Origin: a virus
Reading direction: 5' to 3' (one strand)
IMG/VR virus record: IMGVR_UViG_3300026097_000980
Location: 64,001 to 128,000 of that record
Length of the DNA stretch: 64,000 bases
Numbering within the stretch: the stretch's first letter is position 1; each line of letters begins with the position of its first letter. The notes beneath the pieces are model-generated. The model did not search any database, had not been told where the DNA came from, and saw only the letters and a list, made by a program, of their open reading frames with translations. Positions 8,248 through 48,680 of the stretch are shown here, one piece after another. Position numbers and translations under genes: made by a program.

Positions 8248-9648
8248 ATGCTACAAAAAATACCAACCTCTCAACTAAAAAAACCTATTCTAATTTGTAT
8301 ACATGATATTTTAGACACCTGTTCATCTGATTGGTCGAAAGAGATTGCAAAAAATTTATCAGATTATATGATAAATCGATTTCTAAATAACGGCTATGAT
8401 GTGTGTATAGGAACAGACGAAAACGAGTTATTAGCACAACCAACCGATCAGTATACTCATGCAGTAGTCATTGCTTCGGGAACAAGTCCTAAGCTGTCTG
8501 ACAGAATAATTTATGCTATCGAAGACAAATGCAAAGAAGACTTTTATATCGCAGGACATGTTTTAGACAGAAAAGAAAAATATTTTGAATTACATCATCA
8601 GTTTTATATTATCAACTTGTCGACACACAAGGATCTTGGGTTTCCTTCTTTGGGTGAAGAATCGGAAGTAGAACATGTAAGAATTCAACCTATTTCGAAT
8701 AGTGAAGATGAATATATATCGCAAGAATTATGTTTGGGAGATTCAAACACCTTATATAAAGGAACCATGCATGGTTGGAATATTTTAAACACTGCTCTTA
8801 TAAACAATAAAAAAGTAATAGACCTCGGTAGTGATATTAGAAATAACAAACGATATTTTTATTATGAATACGATCATGTATTTTTGAGAGAATCTACCGA
8901 ACTGTTTTACAATCAATTTCTTTTTAATAACATAGTAGTTCCGTTTAACAGTGACGAATTGAGAAACAATATAGATAAAGACGGTCCTATAGAACAATAT
9001 ATTACGTTAGGCACCGGAATTAACTGGGTAGAAAATTTACATCTAATCGGTTTCAGTGAAAGAACAGAAGTGTTTTTTACCGACATAAATCCATTAGTGT
9101 TACAGTTTATGCAACGAATGGTCAACGACTGGGACGGAAAAGATTATGTTGATTTTTATCTCGAACAAGATTTTTTACTGCCAAATCACATCACTTATGA
9201 TTACGATAATTTTATTGCACAAGCAAGGACCCAATGGAACAATTTCCTCAATAAAGTGGATAACTGGCAAGAAAAATGGAACGCTGTAAAAAAATTAAAG
9301 TTTCATTTTATCTCGATAGATTATATGAGTGATTACAATCTAGACTGGTTCGAAAATGATAAAAACACTGTTTTTAACGCAAGCGATATGTTCGATCACA
9401 TACCAGGAGTGTTCCAGCAAAGTATGAAGTATAGAATAGCGGCTGAAAATCGATTCCTAAACAAATTAAAGGAAAAAGACTCGAATATTTTCTTGTTATG
9501 GAGCAGTCGATCAGCAGGTGCATTTATACCTAAGACATGTCGTTCGTCTTCTGGTGTAGTTTCTAAGATAGATTTGATTGATATAAACGAACTAATTCGT
9601 CCTTATTGGCATAAGGACGATTGGAATGTTCTTAGACCTTTAGTGTAA
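8248..9648 (+). CDS. hypothetical protein, possible C-terminal SAM-binding fold
   Basis: 466-aa ORF; TLGTG...VFFTDINP...FNASDMFD loosely resemble class I methyltransferase motifs. Confidence 0.4.
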   Translation: MLQKIPTSQLKKPILICIHDILDTCSSDWSKEIAKNLSDYMINRFLNNGYDVCIGTDENELLAQPTDQYTHAVVIASGTSPKLSDRIIYAIEDKCKEDFYIAGHVLDRKEKYFELHHQFYIINLSTHKDLGFPSLGEESEVEHVRIQPISNSEDEYISQELCLGDSNTLYKGTMHGWNILNTALINNKKVIDLGSDIRNNKRYFYYEYDHVFLRESTELFYNQFLFNNIVVPFNSDELRNNIDKDGPIEQYITLGTGINWVENLHLIGFSERTEVFFTDINPLVLQFMQRMVNDWDGKDYVDFYLEQDFLLPNHITYDYDNFIAQARTQWNNFLNKVDNWQEKWNAVKKLKFHFISIDYMSDYNLDWFENDKNTVFNASDMFDHIPGVFQQSMKYRIAAENRFLNKLKEKDSNIFLLWSSRSAGAFIPKTCRSSSGVVSKIDLIDINELIRPYWHKDDWNVLRPLV

Positions 9649-17753: not shown

Positions 17754-17830
17754 TGGTACCGCTGAGTGGACTCGAACCACCACTGTATAGAACCTAAATC
17801 TATCGCCTCTACCAATTGGGCTACAGCGGC
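17754..17830 (-). tRNA. tRNA-Leu(TAG), short variable loop
   Basis: ATAGA-TT-TAG-GT-TCTAT arm, GTTCGAG T-loop, ACCA. Confidence 0.9.
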
Positions 17831-23226: not shown

Positions 23227-23240
23227 AATAAACTTATTAG

Positions 23241-23302
23241 AAAACACTTGCTGGCTGGACTCGAACCCACTGTAGACCTCAAAATACTACAACAAGTGCT
23301 TT
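23241..23302 (-). ncRNA. tRNA-like RNA lacking one arm (long closing stem, one hairpin, T-arm)
   Basis: AAAGCACTTGTTG/CAGCAAGTGTTTT stem enclosing a TGTAG/CTACA hairpin and GGGTTCGAGTCC. Confidence 0.4.
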
Positions 23303-23412
23303 ATAATAAGTGCCAGGCTGTCCCTGACTTGACCTATCTCATTACATCCAGGCCGCCGCCCATTTATTTTTTAAAGTGCTTGTCGGATCGCGTTTCCTTT
23401 GCACTATACATT

Positions 23413-23442
23413 AAAAAACCCCGGAGTATTTCTACTTCGGGG
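23413..23442 (-). terminator. intrinsic (attenuator) terminator upstream of the tRNA array
   Basis: CCCCGAAGTA-GAAA-TACTCCGGGG-TTTTTT. Confidence 0.85.
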
Positions 23443-23472
23443 TCCAGTATAATCTTGTTGTGCTACTCTAGA

Positions 23473-23577
23473 CTATACTGAACCTCCATGACGATCATTA
23501 TACCAGCCACAGAACGATCCTGCCACCGTTGGCTGGTTCTTGGGCTTGATAATCATGTACATCGTTTTGTTCATCAT
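23473..23577 (-). CDS. attenuator leader peptide MMNKTMYMIIKPKNQPTVAGSFCGWYNDRHGGSV
   Basis: Hand translation; lies between a promoter and a terminator; its 3' end forms the antiterminator. Confidence 0.75.
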   Translation of the reverse strand: MMNKTMYMIIKPKNQPTVAGSFCGWYNDRHGGSV

Positions 23578-23583
23578 AGTCTT

Positions 23584-23612
23584 ATATTACGACACTTGCT
23601 CTACTGTGTCAA
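23584..23612 (-). promoter_or_regulatory. sigma70-type promoter giving a leaderless leader-peptide/tRNA transcript
   Basis: TTGACA-17nt-TAATAT-6nt-ATG. Confidence 0.75.
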
Positions 23613-31641: not shown

Positions 31642-31863
31642 ATGTCCAGAGAAGAAGATGACGAACTGAGAAGAATCGTTGAGGAACTAGAAAGTTTAAG
31701 AAAACAAGTAGGGCTTCCAGACCGTGTTGAAAAAGTAGAAAAGGATGCTATTCAGAATGCTCTTTATGAGACCGATGGCAATCAAACACTTGCGGCAAAA
31801 AAACTTGGATTAGGTAGAACCTGTTTGATTGCCAAAATGAAGAAGTATGGGATTATAAAGTAG
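31642..31863 (+). CDS. Fis-type helix-turn-helix protein
   Basis: EKDAIQNALYETDGNQTLAAKKLGLGRTCLIAKMKKYG. Confidence 0.85.
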   Translation: MSREEDDELRRIVEELESLRKQVGLPDRVEKVEKDAIQNALYETDGNQTLAAKKLGLGRTCLIAKMKKYGIIK

Positions 31864-33553
31864 CGTTAGGCTCGTTAGGTTTCTTATCTAGAGAATCTGG
31901 CATTCCATCATTGTCAGCGTCATTATATGTATTAGGAGTGTCAGTGTCTTTCTTCTTATAGATTGTCAGCATTTCATTGTTAAGATCTGCTAACACCTTA
32001 CCGGCGGCATCTACTTCAACAATATTTCTAATAGTTTTTCCTTGTTGAATGTATGAACGATACTGTACTAGAATATTGTTCTTACCTAACTTCTGTGCAA
32101 TATTTTTTATTTCATCAGGTGCATCTTTTAGTTTTTCGCTAGGCTTAACTTTAACTTGTAACGCAACGCCATTTCCGCCTTTGGCAGTTAAAACATTACT
32201 GCACTCTAAGTCAAAATATTCGCAGACTTGATAAAATGTTTTTCCAAACCTTAGTTCTACAAAATCTTTACCTGCTCCTGGATCCATGATAGTCACAACT
32301 ACTAGCTCGTCGCCGCGAGTCTTAGAAGAGGCATCTTGCTGATCAACATTCTTCCCTGAATGATATAGTAGTCCTTGCTGTAAATGTGATAGAAAGTCTA
32401 TTTCACCTTCTGTTGTATCACCTGCAAGATGTTTGTTAATTTTTTGTTGGGCCCATTGATAAGTTTCTTTAATAGGCCCATTCATTACTGCTTGAAGAGT
32501 CTTAGGATTTACTATGAACTCACCATCTTTGGTATAGTTGTCTATTACTTTTGCAAATGATGATTTGAAGTTTTCAGGTAACTCATAGTTAAAACTCTGT
32601 CTCCAGAACAATCCAAGTTTCTCAAAAGTTCTACCACTTGCCTGTCCAATCTGTGAACGGCCACTGCCTGCTTTTAAACTTAAAAGACTTAGTGTTTCTG
32701 GATCTCCTTCGCTACCAGCAACGATAAGTTTTAAATCAACCTTTGTCATATTTTGGTTTTCTGCTTCTGCACCGTCACTTACTACGCTGATCTCTTGTTT
32801 GACATCATCAGTGTAATATTCTTGGATTTTAGATACAGCATTACTTGGTTCAAGGCCTGTGTTTGCATAGTTTGCCGCCTTGCTTATCATTTCATTTAGT
32901 TTCTTTCCAGCATCATCACTTAATTCTAGTTTTCTCTGCACTGCTAATCCGTCGCCTTTTGCTTCTATAAGCATTCTTAAGGCTTTGATGTCTCCTCTAG
33001 GGAGTGTCACTTTAATACTTAGACTATCATCGGTTCTGTCTTGCACCGGCAAACTTATTTCATTTTTTCCGCTTGCAAAGAAATTTTCTCCAATGCGTAG
33101 AACATCGTCTGCCGAAATTTCTGTAGATGTATTAGTAAATCTTGCAGCCATTGCAAATCCTAATACACCTTCAGTAACATTTCCTGCATTTACAGTAGTT
33201 TTAACAGCTGACTTATCTATGTTTGTAGGAATAAATTTATGAGTTTTGCCGTCTTCGTCTACGCCGGTTATTTTTTCTTTTACATTTGTTTTTTCACCCG
33301 ACGATCTTAGTTCTACTTGCTTGTTTATTATTGCAAGAGCATTTTCTATCTCTTCTTCAGGAATAGTAACAGGAATTAACCCACTCCCTGCCTTAACTAT
33401 GATTGTCTCTCCTGCTTTTATCTTTGCGATAAGAGGAGGTATGTATGCATTATGGCTTTTATTTTCCGGAGTCCAATATTCTCCCGAAATTAGAGCTTCG
33501 TGTAGTTTCATTGTAGACTTGACTGTTTCTGATAAAAATTCAAATGCTCTCAT
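31853..33553 (-). CDS. hypothetical protein, possible internal head protein
   Basis: MRAFEFLSE N-terminus; TAAATA upstream. Confidence 0.5.
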   Translation of the reverse strand: MRAFEFLSETVKSTMKLHEALISGEYWTPENKSHNAYIPPLIAKIKAGETIIVKAGSGLIPVTIPEEEIENALAIINKQVELRSSGEKTNVKEKITGVDEDGKTHKFIPTNIDKSAVKTTVNAGNVTEGVLGFAMAARFTNTSTEISADDVLRIGENFFASGKNEISLPVQDRTDDSLSIKVTLPRGDIKALRMLIEAKGDGLAVQRKLELSDDAGKKLNEMISKAANYANTGLEPSNAVSKIQEYYTDDVKQEISVVSDGAEAENQNMTKVDLKLIVAGSEGDPETLSLLSLKAGSGRSQIGQASGRTFEKLGLFWRQSFNYELPENFKSSFAKVIDNYTKDGEFIVNPKTLQAVMNGPIKETYQWAQQKINKHLAGDTTEGEIDFLSHLQQGLLYHSGKNVDQQDASSKTRGDELVVVTIMDPGAGKDFVELRFGKTFYQVCEYFDLECSNVLTAKGGNGVALQVKVKPSEKLKDAPDEIKNIAQKLGKNNILVQYRSYIQQGKTIRNIVEVDAAGKVLADLNNEMLTIYKKKDTDTPNTYNDADNDGMPDSLDKKPNEPNATL

Positions 33554-39146: not shown

Positions 39147-40748
<1,602 letters not shown>

Positions 40749-41844: not shown

Positions 41845-43647
41845 CTATTTTTCTCTTTTGATCTGCTGGGTTCCCTGTTTCTCTATCCACTGAGATCTTT
41901 TTTTTTGATCTTGTTGTTCAGCTATCCATTTGAGTGCTTCGGTAGCATCCTCGTCGAGCTCTAAATATTCTTCAGTTTCCCAAGGCAATAACTCTATTTT
42001 TCCGTGTTTTAACAATTGTCTTTGTCTTTTTAAACTGTCCTCAGGATTGTCTGCCTTCCACATTCTCATTGCTTCTCTTTCAGCTTCATGAACAGAATCT
42101 AAAATTTCTTCGTCCGTTTCGTCGTACTCTTCTTCTGTATCATTATCCGAATCGATCTCTGTCTCGACTGTCTCAATTTCTGTTTCAGTGATTTCAACTT
42201 CTTGATTGATTTTTTCATCTCTACTTACAGGATTTTCGTCATTGTAAAATTCTTCTACCAATCCTTGTGTTTCTTTTTGCGTAGCAAGGTCCCAATCTTG
42301 TAAATATTTTGGATCTATCGTTGGCGCCGGTATGTAGTCATCTTGCGTAGGATCGCTTCCTTGTTCCTCTGGAATTGGTTCCTCACTTCCTCTATCCGTT
42401 CCATTAGGAGGTCCGTCTCCGTCAGGATCCTCTGGCCCTCCATCATTATCGTTGGGCTCATCTTTTTCCTCGGTGGCAGTTTCATTTCGCTCCTCCCTGC
42501 TCCAATTAAAAGTATACTGGCTTGCAATTAGAAGTAGTACAGCAAGAGGATCAAACACAATGATAATAACAATAATAACCCAACGAACTGCTTCTTCTAA
42601 TAGATTTTTATCTGCTTGCTCGCCATAGATAAACTCTGCAATATACTTGATAGGACCAACTTCCGCTTCTAGCTTGCGATACTCAGCTTCTAGAGTAAAC
42701 TTTTGTTCTGTGAGAGCGTCAAGCTCTGTGTTAGCGGCTTTGATTCTTGCGTTCTGTTCGTCGATGATAGCATCAATATCTTCGCCTGTGCTTTGACCTA
42801 ATTGTCCACGAAGTCTGCCAATAAGTTTGTTGCTGTCATCAATCTCTGCTTCAGCACGACTACGAAGTCTCTGTATTTCTTCTTGAGCGTTTGCTTTTAG
42901 TTCTTCAATCTTAGCGAGAATCTCCGTACGTTCTTGCTCGAGCCCTTCTTTATATGCAGATACAGCACGGGCTGTGCCGCCGCCGTATGCACCGTCTGGT
43001 CTAGTACCTACTAGACTTTGTAGGCGTTTAACTGCTTCTTCGTCTGTGGTATCAATATCGGATAGTTCGTTAAATCTAGCAAGTTTTTCATCAACAGCTG
43101 GAAGTTGACCTAAATAAAATTCTTTGTCTCGTTCAAGTTTTTCGTTAGTAGCATCAATAGCAGGTTGTACACGATCGTAGGCTGTGTCAATACGCTCTTG
43201 TTCTCTGTCAATCTGTGACTGTATGTTTTGATCTGCACCTGTGCCTGAAGTTTGTGTAGTTTCTACTATTTGTTCGGCACGAGCAATAACTGCTTGCTGT
43301 CTAGCAATCTCTTTTTCAATCTGTTCAATTTGTGCAACGCCTTCGCCTGCGGCTGACGTCTGTTCTATGTGTGCCTTTGACAAGAACCCAAAGATACCCA
43401 TGCTTGTAATAAACATTAGAATAATAACAGCGGTACTTAGATAGGTTTTGAGCCACCAAGTAGCACGTTCCCAGTGCTTGTGTAACCACACTGCTGTGAC
43501 CAGTTTACCAATCTCAAGAGCGCCGCCCATAATGATAATTGGAACTGCGGCTGCCGCAAAGATAGCAACAAGCCCTGCTACTGAGTAGTAAATGGCAACC
43601 GCACTAATAGTGAGTGCGGTGATGAGTGTTAGTACTGCTAAGAACAT
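41845..43647 (-). CDS. membrane coiled-coil protein with peptidoglycan-binding motif
   Basis: Three N-terminal TMs, coiled coil, VKRLQ..VG..PDG.YG..T..AV (PG_binding_1-like), later TM, acidic tail. Confidence 0.6.
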   Translation of the reverse strand: MFLAVLTLITALTISAVAIYYSVAGLVAIFAAAAVPIIIMGGALEIGKLVTAVWLHKHWERATWWLKTYLSTAVIILMFITSMGIFGFLSKAHIEQTSAAGEGVAQIEQIEKEIARQQAVIARAEQIVETTQTSGTGADQNIQSQIDREQERIDTAYDRVQPAIDATNEKLERDKEFYLGQLPAVDEKLARFNELSDIDTTDEEAVKRLQSLVGTRPDGAYGGGTARAVSAYKEGLEQERTEILAKIEELKANAQEEIQRLRSRAEAEIDDSNKLIGRLRGQLGQSTGEDIDAIIDEQNARIKAANTELDALTEQKFTLEAEYRKLEAEVGPIKYIAEFIYGEQADKNLLEEAVRWVIIVIIIVFDPLAVLLLIASQYTFNWSREERNETATEEKDEPNDNDGGPEDPDGDGPPNGTDRGSEEPIPEEQGSDPTQDDYIPAPTIDPKYLQDWDLATQKETQGLVEEFYNDENPVSRDEKINQEVEITETEIETVETEIDSDNDTEEEYDETDEEILDSVHEAEREAMRMWKADNPEDSLKRQRQLLKHGKIELLPWETEEYLELDEDATEALKWIAEQQDQKKRSQWIEKQGTQQIKREK

Positions 43648-44902: not shown

Positions 44903-45469
44903 TTATTCGGCTCTGTAAAAGATGTGAGCACCGATGCGTCCAATTGTGCGGAATCGCTTGTTCCAACTTGGGTCAACATAGGTTGCATGATAGTGAGTAG
45001 CACCTTCTGTGATGCCTCTGTATAAGTCGCGATTGAGGATTTGAAATGCCACAGTCTGTGCCCGTCTCCATGCCTCGGCATCAGTAGGATTATCACTCTT
45101 GCCATCACAGAACCAGCTGAACTGACACTTGTGTCTAACAGGTACAAGTTTGTTGTGATTATCTTTCCACCATTTGGAATATTTCGCATCTTGAACTACT
45201 CCACAAGGTGTGTTCGGCCAGCGGCTGTCTCGCACACGATTAAGAACAACATCGCTGACAGCGAACATTCCTGCAAGATTGTCTGAACGACTTTCGTGGT
45301 ACACATTTAGTGCCATACAGTATTCCTGCGGATGGCTCTCCATTGTGTATAATTCTGCTTCTGGTGCTCTGATAGTATCACCAAAGGAATTGTCTGACGC
45401 AACCGATACTGTTGCAAACAACATCGAAGACACGATTGCTGTTGTAAATTTCATTATTCGCTCCATCAA
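44903..45469 (-). CDS. SleB-like cell wall hydrolase (Hydrolase_2)
   Basis: CMALNVYHESR, VLNRV, CQFSW, GATHYHA, IGAHIFY. Confidence 0.9.
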   Translation of the reverse strand: MMERIMKFTTAIVSSMLFATVSVASDNSFGDTIRAPEAELYTMESHPQEYCMALNVYHESRSDNLAGMFAVSDVVLNRVRDSRWPNTPCGVVQDAKYSKWWKDNHNKLVPVRHKCQFSWFCDGKSDNPTDAEAWRRAQTVAFQILNRDLYRGITEGATHYHATYVDPSWNKRFRTIGRIGAHIFYRAE

Positions 45470-45507: not shown

Positions 45508-45954
45508 TTACCCGCGACGCATTTTACTGATCATTTCTGCTTCTTCTTGATTAATAACAGGAACAGCATTACTTTTATGCATAGTAGCCACTCCCTTGAT
45601 GAGTGTGCCTGTATATTCTTTCTTTGGTTGTGCAAGTGCATTTCCTGTGCTCAGTTCGCCACTGGGGATATGTGATCCGCTGTCTCTGCGATAGCCTTTT
45701 GGTTGCCAGTCGAATGTTTTTACTTCTGGTGCTGTCTGATACTGCACAGGCTTGCGGCGTTCTGTTTCGCCATGCACCCAAGCAACATATTGATCAATGT
45801 CCATGCAGAGATCGTGTTGATGTGCCTGCTTCATTCGCTTGTTGTAATCGCGAAGTTCTGCTTGATACTTTTTTAACTGCGTTTTTGTAAGTTTGCTTTT
45901 CTTAGGCTTGGCTGTTCGTAAAGTAGACAAACCTTTTTCGAGATGCATTGTCAT
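45508..45954 (-). CDS. conserved T4-like hypothetical protein
   Basis: C-terminal YTG..IKGVATMHKSNAVPV...MRRG; upstream TTGACA-17-TAATAT and GGAG. Confidence 0.6.
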   Translation of the reverse strand: MTMHLEKGLSTLRTAKPKKSKLTKTQLKKYQAELRDYNKRMKQAHQHDLCMDIDQYVAWVHGETERRKPVQYQTAPEVKTFDWQPKGYRRDSGSHIPSGELSTGNALAQPKKEYTGTLIKGVATMHKSNAVPVINQEEAEMISKMRRG

Positions 45955-46018
45955 ACGACACTCCGTAGTTGTTAAACTATACAACTATATTAAACTCGTG
46001 TTGTAGAAATGTCAACCG

Positions 46019-46066
46019 TTATTGTATTTGTGATTTCATCCACTGCCAGTATTCTGAATCAGTCAT
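46019..46066 (-). CDS. 15-aa micro-ORF MTDSEYWQWMKSQIQ downstream of the Leu attenuator
   Basis: Preceded by GGAGAAAGGAA immediately after the terminator. Confidence 0.4.
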   Translation of the reverse strand: MTDSEYWQWMKSQIQ

Positions 46067-46080
46067 TTCCTTTCTCCATT

Positions 46081-46112
46081 AAAAAACCCCGGAACATTTC
46101 TATCCCGGGGTT
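46081..46112 (-). terminator. attenuator terminator
   Basis: CCCCGGGATA-GAAA-TGTTCCGGGG-TTTTTT. Confidence 0.85.
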
Positions 46113-46131
46113 AAGTCTAGCACAATAGAGC

Positions 46132-46188
46132 CTACTCCCCGGGAGAGTATCCTAATAGTAGTAGACTGCTGTGTGCGATTGTCTTCAT
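46132..46188 (-). CDS. Leu-type attenuator leader peptide MKTIAHSSLLLLGYSPGE
   Basis: CTA CTA CTA TTA run; CCCGGGG in the leader is complementary to the terminator 5' arm. Confidence 0.75.
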   Translation of the reverse strand: MKTIAHSSLLLLGYSPGE

Positions 46189-46192
46189 ATTA

Positions 46193-46786
46193 TTATTTAC
46201 TCAAACTTTTTAAAAATTGAAATGCTTCTTTAGATTTAAGATAATCTAAACAATTCTCCGGTGTTGATTCAAAATAAGGATCTTGATCTTCACCGAGGTC
46301 ATTAATATCTGGTTCTTGCCACCATTTTTCTATAACACAATCATTAATAATTGCAGAATAACGCCAGCTACGCATACCAAAACCAAGATGCGACTTATCG
46401 ACTAACATTCCCATTCTACGAGTAAAATCACCATTACCGTCTGGGATAAATTTAATGTTTTGAACGCTTTGATCAATCATCCACTTACGCATTACAAAGG
46501 TGTCGTTTACTGAAATAACATAAATGTCATCTACGCCTTCGTCAAGAATCTGTTGATAGTTTTCTTCAAATCCTGGAACTTGAAATGTTGAACATGTAGG
46601 TGTAAATGCTCCAGGTAAAGAAAATAACACAATTCTTTTATTTGCAAAAATATCTTCGGTTGTAAATTCTTTCCAATCAAACGGATTTTCACCGCCGTTA
46701 GTTGTGTCTACATAAGTGATAGGATGTCCGTCAGTGCGGACACGATAATGAAATGTTGTAAACGGAATTTGTATGCCTTCTTTCAT
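46193..46786 (-). CDS. peroxiredoxin (Prx5-like)
   Basis: LPGAFTPTCS, SVND.FVM, G.RSWRY. Confidence 0.92.
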   Translation of the reverse strand: MKEGIQIPFTTFHYRVRTDGHPITYVDTTNGGENPFDWKEFTTEDIFANKRIVLFSLPGAFTPTCSTFQVPGFEENYQQILDEGVDDIYVISVNDTFVMRKWMIDQSVQNIKFIPDGNGDFTRRMGMLVDKSHLGFGMRSWRYSAIINDCVIEKWWQEPDINDLGEDQDPYFESTPENCLDYLKSKEAFQFLKSLSK

Positions 46787-47044: not shown

Positions 47045-47479
47045 TTAGGCGTTTTCTTCGTTGTATGCATCCAAAGTCTTCTTGAACTTGTTAGCATGTG
47101 AACGCTCTGCCTTAGCAAGAGTTTCAAACCAATCTGCAATCTCGTCGTGGCCTTCGTCACGAGCTGTCTTTGCCATGCCCGGGTACATGTCCGTGTATTC
47201 ATGTGTTTCACCAGCAATAGCACTTTCCAATGCTTCTACAACATTGCCTGCCGCTAGACCGGTTTCTGGATCACCCGAGCCACCTTGAATTAGATATTCC
47301 ATGTGTCCGTGTGCGTGACCAGTTTCGCCTTCTGCTGTGTTACGGAATACATTGGCTACTTCTGGAGCACCTTCAATGTCTGCCATGTTTGCAAAATACA
47401 AATAACGACGGTTGGCTTTTGACTCACCTGCGAAAGCATCTTTCAATGCCTGTTCTGTTTTAGAACCTTTAAGACTCAT
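47045..47479 (-). CDS. rubrerythrin (erythrin-type)
   Basis: [36 protein letters not shown]. Confidence 0.92.
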
Positions 47480-47994: not shown

Positions 47995-48064
47995 TTTATT
48001 TCCTTCTGTGTGTGATATTGTTTAGATATCTAAGTATAGTTATAAAAGAAAAGCACCCGAAGGT

Positions 48065-48388
48065 GCTTTTCTGACTTTTGGATTACAAGGCAGTCAACCC
48101 CGAAGCCTCATGCGGCCAGTGCGAATGTTTCATCATTTGCAGTTATTTTATTTTGCTTCTACGACCGGGTATACTCCCAATCCTAACGGCTTTCACATTG
48201 CCGGTAACTCCACTCGCCTAATCATCTCGCCGTCGAATCCTTGATCTGCCCCATCATAGATACACCACGTTCTTCTCCTACTATTTCACCTTTCGGTCTA
48301 CTCTCTCGGAGTTGTAGATGTATCTATGGTGGAACAGCCGGGAGTCGAACCCGGGTCCGTCAACCTTTCGGTCTGCTTCATCGTTACA
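48065..48388 (-). ncRNA. ssrA: circularly permuted (two-piece) tmRNA, tag ANDETFALAA
   Basis: T-arm/ACCA piece ends at 48327, upstream of the GGGGCAG 5' end at 48252; G3.U pair; tag frame 48140-48108. Confidence 0.9.
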
Positions 48389-48395
48389 GTATTAT

Positions 48396-48680
48396 TTAAC
48401 TATCTTTTTTGCTGTCTGTCAAGTCTTCTAATTGCTTTTTTAAATTTAAGACTTGGATATGCAGTAACATGTTTTCCACAACCAATTTAGTCATAGATGC
48501 AAGGAGCACAACTTTGTCTTCTTCTGTGTACTCTTCTTTATCGAATTGCTCCAGGATAGATGTTCCTATCATTTTAAAGGCTTCGTCTTTGCCTACAGAT
48601 AATTTATCCCAAGGAATAGGATCTCCCGATTCCGCTTCTTTAGCGATGTCTACTAATAATTCTAAATCAATTTCTCTCAT
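48396..48680 (-). CDS. hypothetical protein
   Basis: ORF. Confidence 0.5.
   Translation of the reverse strand: MREIDLELLVDIAKEAESGDPIPWDKLSVGKDEAFKMIGTSILEQFDKEEYTEEDKVVLLASMTKLVVENMLLHIQVLNLKKQLEDLTDSKKDS

Follow-up and report, generated by a model that had tools for sequence, protein, structure and literature searches.

Leader-peptide attenuation is a textbook mechanism that is tied to amino-acid biosynthesis. In the class that includes trpL, hisL, pheL, thrL, and leuL, the helices 1:2, 2:3, and 3:4 between four RNA regions are mutually exclusive, the stop codon of a short leader open reading frame (ORF) lies beside region 2, and the terminator ends in a U tract. The leuL leader has four adjacent leucine (Leu) codons. 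The control codons of the leu attenuator in Salmonella include three CUA codons (PMC1183508). The leuL attenuator of Salmonella and E. coli is among the described systems that come closest in design. A module that shares these traits was found in a large uncultured phage, directly behind a peroxiredoxin gene (prx). The stretch of DNA that was analysed, referred to here as the window, is 64,000 nucleotides (nt) in length (positions 64,001 to 128,000 of IMG/VR record IMGVR_UViG_3300026097_000980) and is part of a 155.5-kb IMG/VR phage contig (G000) that was estimated by CheckV to be 42% complete. It is fairly probable that the module is a working ribosome-mediated attenuator of the classical four-region type that senses the decoding of Leu codons and gates read-through of a terminator.

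The module differs from leuL in several respects. It is located in a phage, it follows a peroxiredoxin gene, and no leucine biosynthesis gene comes after it. Its leader ORF has no Shine-Dalgarno sequence (SD) and is probably translated from a leaderless or re-initiating message. There is also no sequence or model similarity to the Leu_leader family of Rfam (RF00512), which gave no match at gathering score in the window and, over 45900-46300, none even at E up to 10. His_leader was the one leader family that Rfam listed near the module, below threshold (16.1 bits against a cut-off of 49). A leu leader borrowed from a host was considered and rejected. Leu_leader does not match, and the terminator pattern, when scanned against 185,579 prokaryote genomes, turned up nothing but generic terminators that are unrelated.

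Control of genes outside amino-acid biosynthesis, as would occur with the module, is described for Salmonella mgtCBR (PMC3641672), where translation of short leader ORFs picks between alternative stem-loops. In contrast to the module, the mgtCBR ORFs are described there within the long 5' leader of a bacterial virulence operon. No paper describing Leu-leader or transfer RNA (tRNA)-array leader attenuators in phages was found in the literature. Tandem leader-ORF attenuators of the mgtCBR type are not known from phages.

Alternative helices in the leucine leader

All of the elements of the module are located on the minus strand. Those that the earlier note had read from the letters were present where it had placed them, and its statements about the sequence were correct. 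The elements are as follows.

46199-46194, minus strand: TAAATA motif, overlapping the prx stop codon, 5 nt before the leader ATG (46188)
46188-46132, minus strand: leader ORF MKTIAHSSLLLLGYSPGE, 18 codons and a TAG stop, without SD
46176-46120, minus strand: hairpin 1:2, found in the minimum free energy (MFE) and centroid structures
46164-46153, minus strand: control codons CUA CUA CUA UUA
46148-46137, minus strand: region 2, ACUCUCCCGGGG, complement of the terminator 5' arm and half of its loop
46112-46085, minus strand: intrinsic terminator (regions 3 and 4), AACCCCGGGATA-GAAA-TGTTCCGGGGTT, with a 12-bp stem, 6 G-C pairs, and a GAAA tetraloop
46110-46099, minus strand: region 3, CCCCGGGAUAGA, terminator 5' arm and half of the loop
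46086-46081, minus strand: T6 (U6 in RNA) tract of the terminator
46077-46074, minus strand: SD GGAG, 7 nt before the micro-ORF
46066-46019, minus strand: micro-ORF MTDSEYWQWMKSQIQ, 15 codons, ending at a stop codon

The reading as an attenuator stems from the way these elements fit the trpL/leuL design in their order and spacing, in their alternative helices, and in having codons for a single amino acid in a run. The sequence CTACTACTA occurs a single time within the 64 kb, both strands included. CTA makes up 20% of the Leu codons of the phage. The earlier note had claimed that a CUA-reading tRNA-Leu(TAG) is encoded elsewhere in the phage, and the gene was located with ARAGORN at 17754-17830 of the window. 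A gene for tRNA-Leu(UAA) is present at 145868-145954 of the contig. Thus, the CUA and UUA codons of the leader match the anticodons of phage tRNA-Leu(UAG) and tRNA-Leu(UAA), whose genes are located ~28 kb and ~36 kb from the module. The tRNA-Leu(tag) gene of the window is solitary and has no leader. The tRNA-Leu(taa) gene belongs to a small second tRNA array, Met(cat)-Arg(tct)-Leu(taa), at 145620-145954 (plus strand) of contig G000, beyond the window. This array has its own promoter (TTGACA-17-TATACT), with no leader ORF or terminator ahead of it. The leader peptide was also considered as a type I toxin. This was rejected, as its 18-19 residues are too few, and their hydrophobicity too low, to span a membrane.

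The fold of the region has an energy of -39.9 kcal/mol (z -3.7 against shuffles) and consists of a long hairpin followed by the terminator. The Leu codons are in the 5' strand of the long hairpin, 1:2, and the end of the leader, region 2, and the stop codon are in its enclosed or 3' part. In the untranslated leader, this MFE hairpin sequesters region 2, and it is predicted to be an anti-antiterminator or a pause hairpin.

The earlier note had proposed that CCCGGGG in the leader could pair with the 5' arm of the terminator. This pairing is present and is longer than was noted. Regions 2 and 3 are complementary over 12 nt, with 10 of the 12 positions paired in the window and all 12 in a second phage, L011, that is described below. 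The 2:3 duplex has an energy of -19.6 kcal/mol in the window (shuffle mean -9.3, standard deviation 2.2) and -20.5 kcal/mol in L011 (shuffle mean -8.5). For each phage, 2000 dinucleotide shuffles of the leader were made and none was as good. All 34 terminator-like hairpins in the 155-kb contig were also scanned for an upstream small ORF that is complementary to the terminator arm. The module alone has this leader-to-arm complementarity (z -5.0; next best -1.8).

The effect of ribosome position was explored through constraint folding with an assumed footprint of +12 nt. A ribosome with its A site on one of the first three Leu codons leaves region 2 free, and 2:3 forms in transcripts cut before region 4, at -22.7 kcal/mol in the window and -23.1 kcal/mol in L011. 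In the full-length L011 RNA with the ribosome at the Leu codons, 2:3 is the MFE structure and the probability of the terminator is 0.04-0.06. Once the A site is at UAG, the ribosome covers region 2 and the terminator alone can form. The modelled spacing therefore fits an arrangement in which region 2 is exposed by a stalled ribosome and hidden by one that has reached the stop codon.

The mechanism that we infer, from the promoter through leader translation and stalling to conditional read-through, would operate as follows. Transcripts entering the module would start at TAAATA as leaderless messenger RNA, and the 18-codon leader would then be translated. Transcripts of the prx operon are another possible source, if ribosomes re-initiate 4 nt past the stop codon of prx. 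If CUA and UUA are decoded quickly, the ribosome would reach UAG and cover region 2, terminator 3:4 would form, and the RNA would end at the U tract. If decoding is slow, the ribosome would stall on the first Leu codons and hairpin 1:2 would be broken. Region 2 could then pair with region 3 while region 4 is still to be transcribed, and the antiterminated polymerase would continue into the 15-codon ORF with its SD and on into the operon that follows. The target of control may be the micro-ORF, the next operon, or both. Because the codons match the anticodons of the phage tRNA-Leu genes, the element would report the supply of charged Leu-tRNA during infection, with the phage tRNAs included.

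Conservation in a second phage and kinship with tRNA-array leaders

The second copy of the module, L011, is on a 94-kb contig that is the same as L063 and also appears as L065 in the metagenome set. The earlier note had suggested that synteny in related phages be compared for leuA or tRNA genes at this position. The module itself is kept in L011; neither leuA nor a tRNA gene is found behind it. In L011 it comes after prx and before a different gene, which encodes a 179-aa 2OG-Fe(II) oxygenase-like protein. In the close relatives L005/L009, L008, and L010, prx is followed directly by the next promoter. The edges of the insertion or deletion are ambiguous in comparison with the module-less L005 and L008. 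From these arrangements, the module appears to travel with prx rather than with the downstream gene. The nucleotide identities between the window and L011 are as follows.

Rubrerythrin gene: 83%
prx: 69%
Leader ORF: ~63%
Spacer: ~42%
Terminator: ~93%, with 2 differences in the 28-nt hairpin
SD and micro-ORF: ~80%

The L011 leader, MKTIFANTLLLLLGIYPRA, ends at a stop codon that has the same place relative to region 2 as in the window. It keeps MKTI and has one more Leu codon through an in-frame 3-nt insertion or deletion. Its Leu run is UUA CUA CUG CUA CUA (five codons), and tRNA-Leu(UAG) is encoded by this phage as well. L011 also has an equivalent of the long 1:2 hairpin, whose base is made from other sequence (UUUGCCAACA with UGUUGGCAAA, against GCACA with UGUGC in the window). 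Its antiterminator is a perfect 12-bp helix of UCUAUCCUAGGG with CCCUGGGAUAGA. At column 98 of the alignment, in region 3, C is replaced by U in L011, and the two partners of this position, at columns 64 (region 2) and 115 (region 4), are both changed from G to A. Compensated change at both partners is what would be expected if both pairings matter. The C-termini of the two leaders differ (YSPGE and IYPRA) while the complementarity of the RNA stays. This suggests that base pairing, rather than the encoded peptide, has shaped a part of the ORF.

The terminator has a relative within the window. The earlier note had called it closely similar to the terminator behind the leader of a tRNA array, and this was borne out. 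A 26-nt pattern, TAGAAATNNTCCGGGGTTTTTTAATG, occurs at 23409-23434 and 46077-46102 only (0 expected in shuffles), and the 57 nt around it are 75% identical between the two places. The terminators of the Leu module and of the tRNA-array leader are paralogues. Leader cassettes of this second kind are found at ~23409-23565 of the window and in the relatives L003, L004, L054-L064, and L086. Homology with the module extends over the terminator arms, the GAAA loop, the U tract, and ~25 nt beyond. Both have a short SD-less ORF 5-6 nt after a promoter element, and the presumed logic of both is to sense the decoding of particular codons. The cassettes differ from the module in having tRNA genes behind them and in sampling many amino acids, where the module is monovalent for Leu. 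The upstream element is TTGACA-17-TAATAT in the array and TAAATA in the module. The direct 2:3 complementarity of the module has no counterpart in the array leader of the window (z +1.0 against the terminator 5' arm), where a separate hairpin abuts the terminator instead.

The tRNA array of the window contains tRNAs for Asn, Pro, Trp, Tyr, Phe, and Cys and one tRNA found by Rfam only. At its head (23409-23600, minus strand) is TTGACA-17-TAATAT-N6-ATGATG with a 34-codon ORF, MMNKTMYMIIKPKNQPTVAGSFCGWYNDRHGGSV, that ends at a stop codon before the homologous terminator. The run FCGWYN in this leader corresponds to five of the tRNAs of the array. The leader peptide lacks Leu and Glu only, which agrees with what the earlier note had said of its two absent residues. 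Relatives are found in L003 (1320-1500), L004 (3640-3813), L056, L058, L054, and L086; their leaders differ (for example, ...MFCGWIYDR... and ...YWSGVFFCGQNHDPILE...) and the terminator is the same. Between the array terminator and the first tRNA (23230-23400, minus strand) there is a conserved hairpin (GTGC...GCAC), which is followed by a tRNA-like stretch with a T-arm-like GGTTCGAGTCC and no ARAGORN call. This block of hairpin and tRNA-like stretch is also conserved in L003 and L004.

Further copies of the module were sought through pattern scans of IMG/VR (two terminator patterns, the DNA of the micro-ORF, and back-translated MTDSEYWQ), a metagenome scan, blastn against 50,697 phage records, blastn-short on 46 prx loci, and a covariance model run on the window's own contig and five related records. 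All of these searches gave only the window, the one contig of L011, L063, and L065, and leaders of the tRNA-array type. One metagenome match, L066, was rejected as a chance occurrence inside a GC-rich gene.

Putative leader translation and the neighbouring genes

There are two possible routes by which the leader could be translated. The arrangement TAAATA-N5-ATG is kept in both phages although the offset from the prx stop codon differs, with the leader ATG 4 nt past it in the window and 8 nt past it in L011. When the 60 nt ahead of each of 172 crude genes are counted, TAAATA is the top hexamer, with 37 occurrences, and its density there is 3.59/kb against 0.47/kb genome-wide. Twelve genes have TAAATA 4-8 nt before the ATG, with no evident SD between the two in the stretches shown. 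Examples in the window are 41845-43647, 31853-33553, 44903-45466, and 8248-9648. Other genes of the contig, in contrast, have strong SDs, such as GGAGGAAACTATG of rubrerythrin. The tRNA-array leaders begin 6 nt after the -10 box TAATAT. These 12 genes and the arrangement of the leader suggest a leaderless messenger RNA, and TAAATA would be a late-type promoter element that gives rise to it. The motif can be likened to the late promoter motif of T4. A search for Gp23 as a sign of kinship with T4 gave no match in the 42%-complete contig, and the control genomes gave none either. The second route may be re-initiation after the prx stop codon, 4 or 8 nt upstream. As a separate observation, the gene after the module in L011 (3744-3783) begins 6 nt past a -10-like TATTAT without an SD and resembles a leaderless start.

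The genes and promoters that flank the module are as follows.

Upstream of the rubrerythrin gene, minus strand: operon promoter TTGCAT-17-TACAAT
46786-46193, minus strand: prx, 197 aa, TAA stop at 46195-46193 (Pfam Redoxin 8.9e-22 and AhpC-TSA 1.8e-11)
46015-45987, minus strand: sigma-70-type promoter TTGACA-17-TAATAT of the next gene, 3 nt past the micro-ORF
45954-45508, minus strand: next gene, 148 aa, phrog_27048, the first gene reached by a read-through transcript

The gene prx is the last of a rubrerythrin-GNAT-prx operon with a sigma-70-type promoter, and the attenuator module starts at its stop codon. The earlier note had remarked that no leuA follows, and this is correct: an SD and the 15-codon ORF are followed by the next promoter, and then by the 148-aa phrog_27048 protein and a cell-wall hydrolase. 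PHROGs and Pfam searches with the downstream proteins gave no function linked to leucine. The relatives of the 148-aa gene all have their own TTGACA promoter and are all without the module. A hidden tRNA or transfer-messenger RNA (tmRNA) was rejected, since ARAGORN and Rfam (E up to 10) were empty between the terminator and the next gene.

The micro-ORF of L011, MTDSEYWQYMKKYIQ, has the same length, start, stop, and SD as that of the window. From this comparison, the micro-ORF appears to be the only conserved cargo of the module. No promoter between the terminator and the micro-ORF was seen on inspection of the sequence; therefore, the micro-ORF should be expressed only by read-through. A conserved SD and ORF behind a strong terminator in turn argue that read-through happens. 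The possibility that the micro-ORF is the start of a longer gene was explored by searching the genome and every locus for both peptides with tblastn, which found nothing else. Translational attenuation of the micro-ORF was rejected, as its SD is outside the terminator hairpin.

The rubrerythrin-GNAT-peroxiredoxin operon (47045-47479 and 46193-46786, minus strand) is an oxidative-stress operon. The hydrolase (44903-45466, minus strand) is of the SleB type, and its N-terminus resembles a signal peptide by eye. It is followed by two ORFs whose N-termini resemble, also by eye, lipoprotein signals; hence, these genes may form a lysis cluster. The phage encodes a GroEL-type chaperonin (phrog_5725, 1e-168) at 39147-40745 (minus strand). 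A permuted two-piece tmRNA with the tag ANDETFALAA is located at 48108-48387, minus strand (48017-48419 in ARAGORN), 2 kb upstream of the attenuator. It scores 81.7 bits on the Rfam model tmRNA_permuted against a cut-off of 47. The tmRNA is another device for stalled ribosomes, and it may hint at the host lineage.

Competing explanations and significance

Several observations weigh against an attenuator. Apart from the window, only one of 46 related IMG/VR prx loci has the module (L011) and 45 do not. In the full-length RNA of the window, the terminator is preferred even with a stalled ribosome (-28.6 against -22.7 kcal/mol), and region 2 of this copy can fold on itself. Read-through would therefore depend on kinetics. 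In trp, the terminator is likewise thermodynamically stronger than the antiterminator, so that the choice is kinetic. No SD precedes the leader ORF in either phage, and translation of the leader would have to come from the putative leaderless start or from re-initiation after prx. The covariation is one event in two sequences, and a shuffle control of the pair counts gave 236/500. No gene for leucine, tRNA, or aminoacylation comes after the module, which leaves the benefit of read-through unexplained. In the trpL/leuL class, the controlled genes are in the pathway of the sensed amino acid, and here they are not; nor do tRNA genes stand directly behind the terminator, as they do in the phage tRNA-array leaders. 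The next gene is served by its own promoter, and in L011 a different gene takes its place. Finally, the coding signal of the micro-ORF is modest, with 3 synonymous and 3 non-synonymous codon differences between the window and L011.

An attenuator is nevertheless favoured because the complementarity is beyond chance, is correctly placed with respect to the Leu and stop codons, and is kept by a compensated change. The Leu-tRNA sensor put forward in the earlier note is strengthened by the complementarity, the geometry, and the conservation in L011.

A more specific proposal can be made only tentatively. The module might be a free-standing gauge of translation capacity, in the form of a leaderless Leu attenuator that reads the supply of phage tRNA-Leu(UAG/UAA), or its loss to starvation or to host anticodon nucleases. 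Its output would be the conserved 15-aa peptide, conditional late read-through into the neighbour operon, or both. In that case, attenuation would serve a virus as a general timing or stress signal and not as pathway feedback.

It is rather unlikely that the hairpin is a plain constitutive terminator of the rubrerythrin-GNAT-prx operon, with the upstream hairpin stabilising the 3' end and with no regulatory role for the ORFs or for 2:3. A plain terminator had also been named in the earlier note. A strong hairpin with U6 does stand directly behind the last gene of a sigma-70 operon. However, the four closest prx loci besides L011, and 45 of the 46 in all, have no terminator there. The lack of an SD before the leader and of any related cargo gene behind the module would suit a plain terminator, but the ORF frame, the Leu run, and the position of the stop codon have outlasted 37% divergence, and a conserved SD and ORF are placed where read-through alone can express them. 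The window copy favours the terminator thermodynamically in every simulated state. Against this, the 12-nt complementarity is beyond chance in both phages, is unique in the genome, and is kept by compensated change.

Less probable still is a phage RNA gene of ~105 nt, from TAAATA to the terminator, that acts in trans as a small RNA or has a dual function with the 18-aa peptide. A promoter-like motif, two stable hairpins, and a U-tract end are the usual shape of a bacterial small RNA. This model does not call for a conserved frame, an in-frame insertion or deletion, or a run of one amino acid, nor does it require that the stop codon be fixed beside region 2 or that the terminator arm have a second partner. 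Rfam does give matches to small RNAs with similar terminators, such as anti-hemB (18.7 bits against a cut-off of 49.5), but these are far under threshold, and no target was identified.

A functionless relic, left from an attenuator of tRNA-Leu or of another gene since lost or moved, had been offered in the earlier note as its other branch and is now very improbable. In its favour, the terminator shares homology with those behind the tRNA-array leaders, and tRNA-Leu(tag) stands alone elsewhere. However, ARAGORN and Rfam (E up to 10) gave no tRNA remnant before the promoter, there is no trace of leu, and the gap of just 65 nt is occupied by the SD and an ORF conserved in length, start, and stop. 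A relic would also not keep both pairings by compensated changes while identity fell to 63% in the leader and 42% in the spacer. All three of these rival explanations are disfavoured by the double pairing with its compensated change and by the reading frame that was kept.

All four regions of the classical design are thus present in a phage module that no pathway gene follows, and the design has been kept, apparently under selection, in two diverged phages. If the module is an attenuator, phages would use the speed of the ribosome on given codons, those that match the anticodons of phage tRNAs, as an input for unrelated genes or for a micropeptide. If the leader does start without a 5' leader sequence, as is likely, the sensing ribosome would be loaded in an unusual manner. 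The module would provide a sensor of CUA decoding that is compact, portable, and simple to test, and it would link the tRNA genes, codon usage, and gene timing of the phage.

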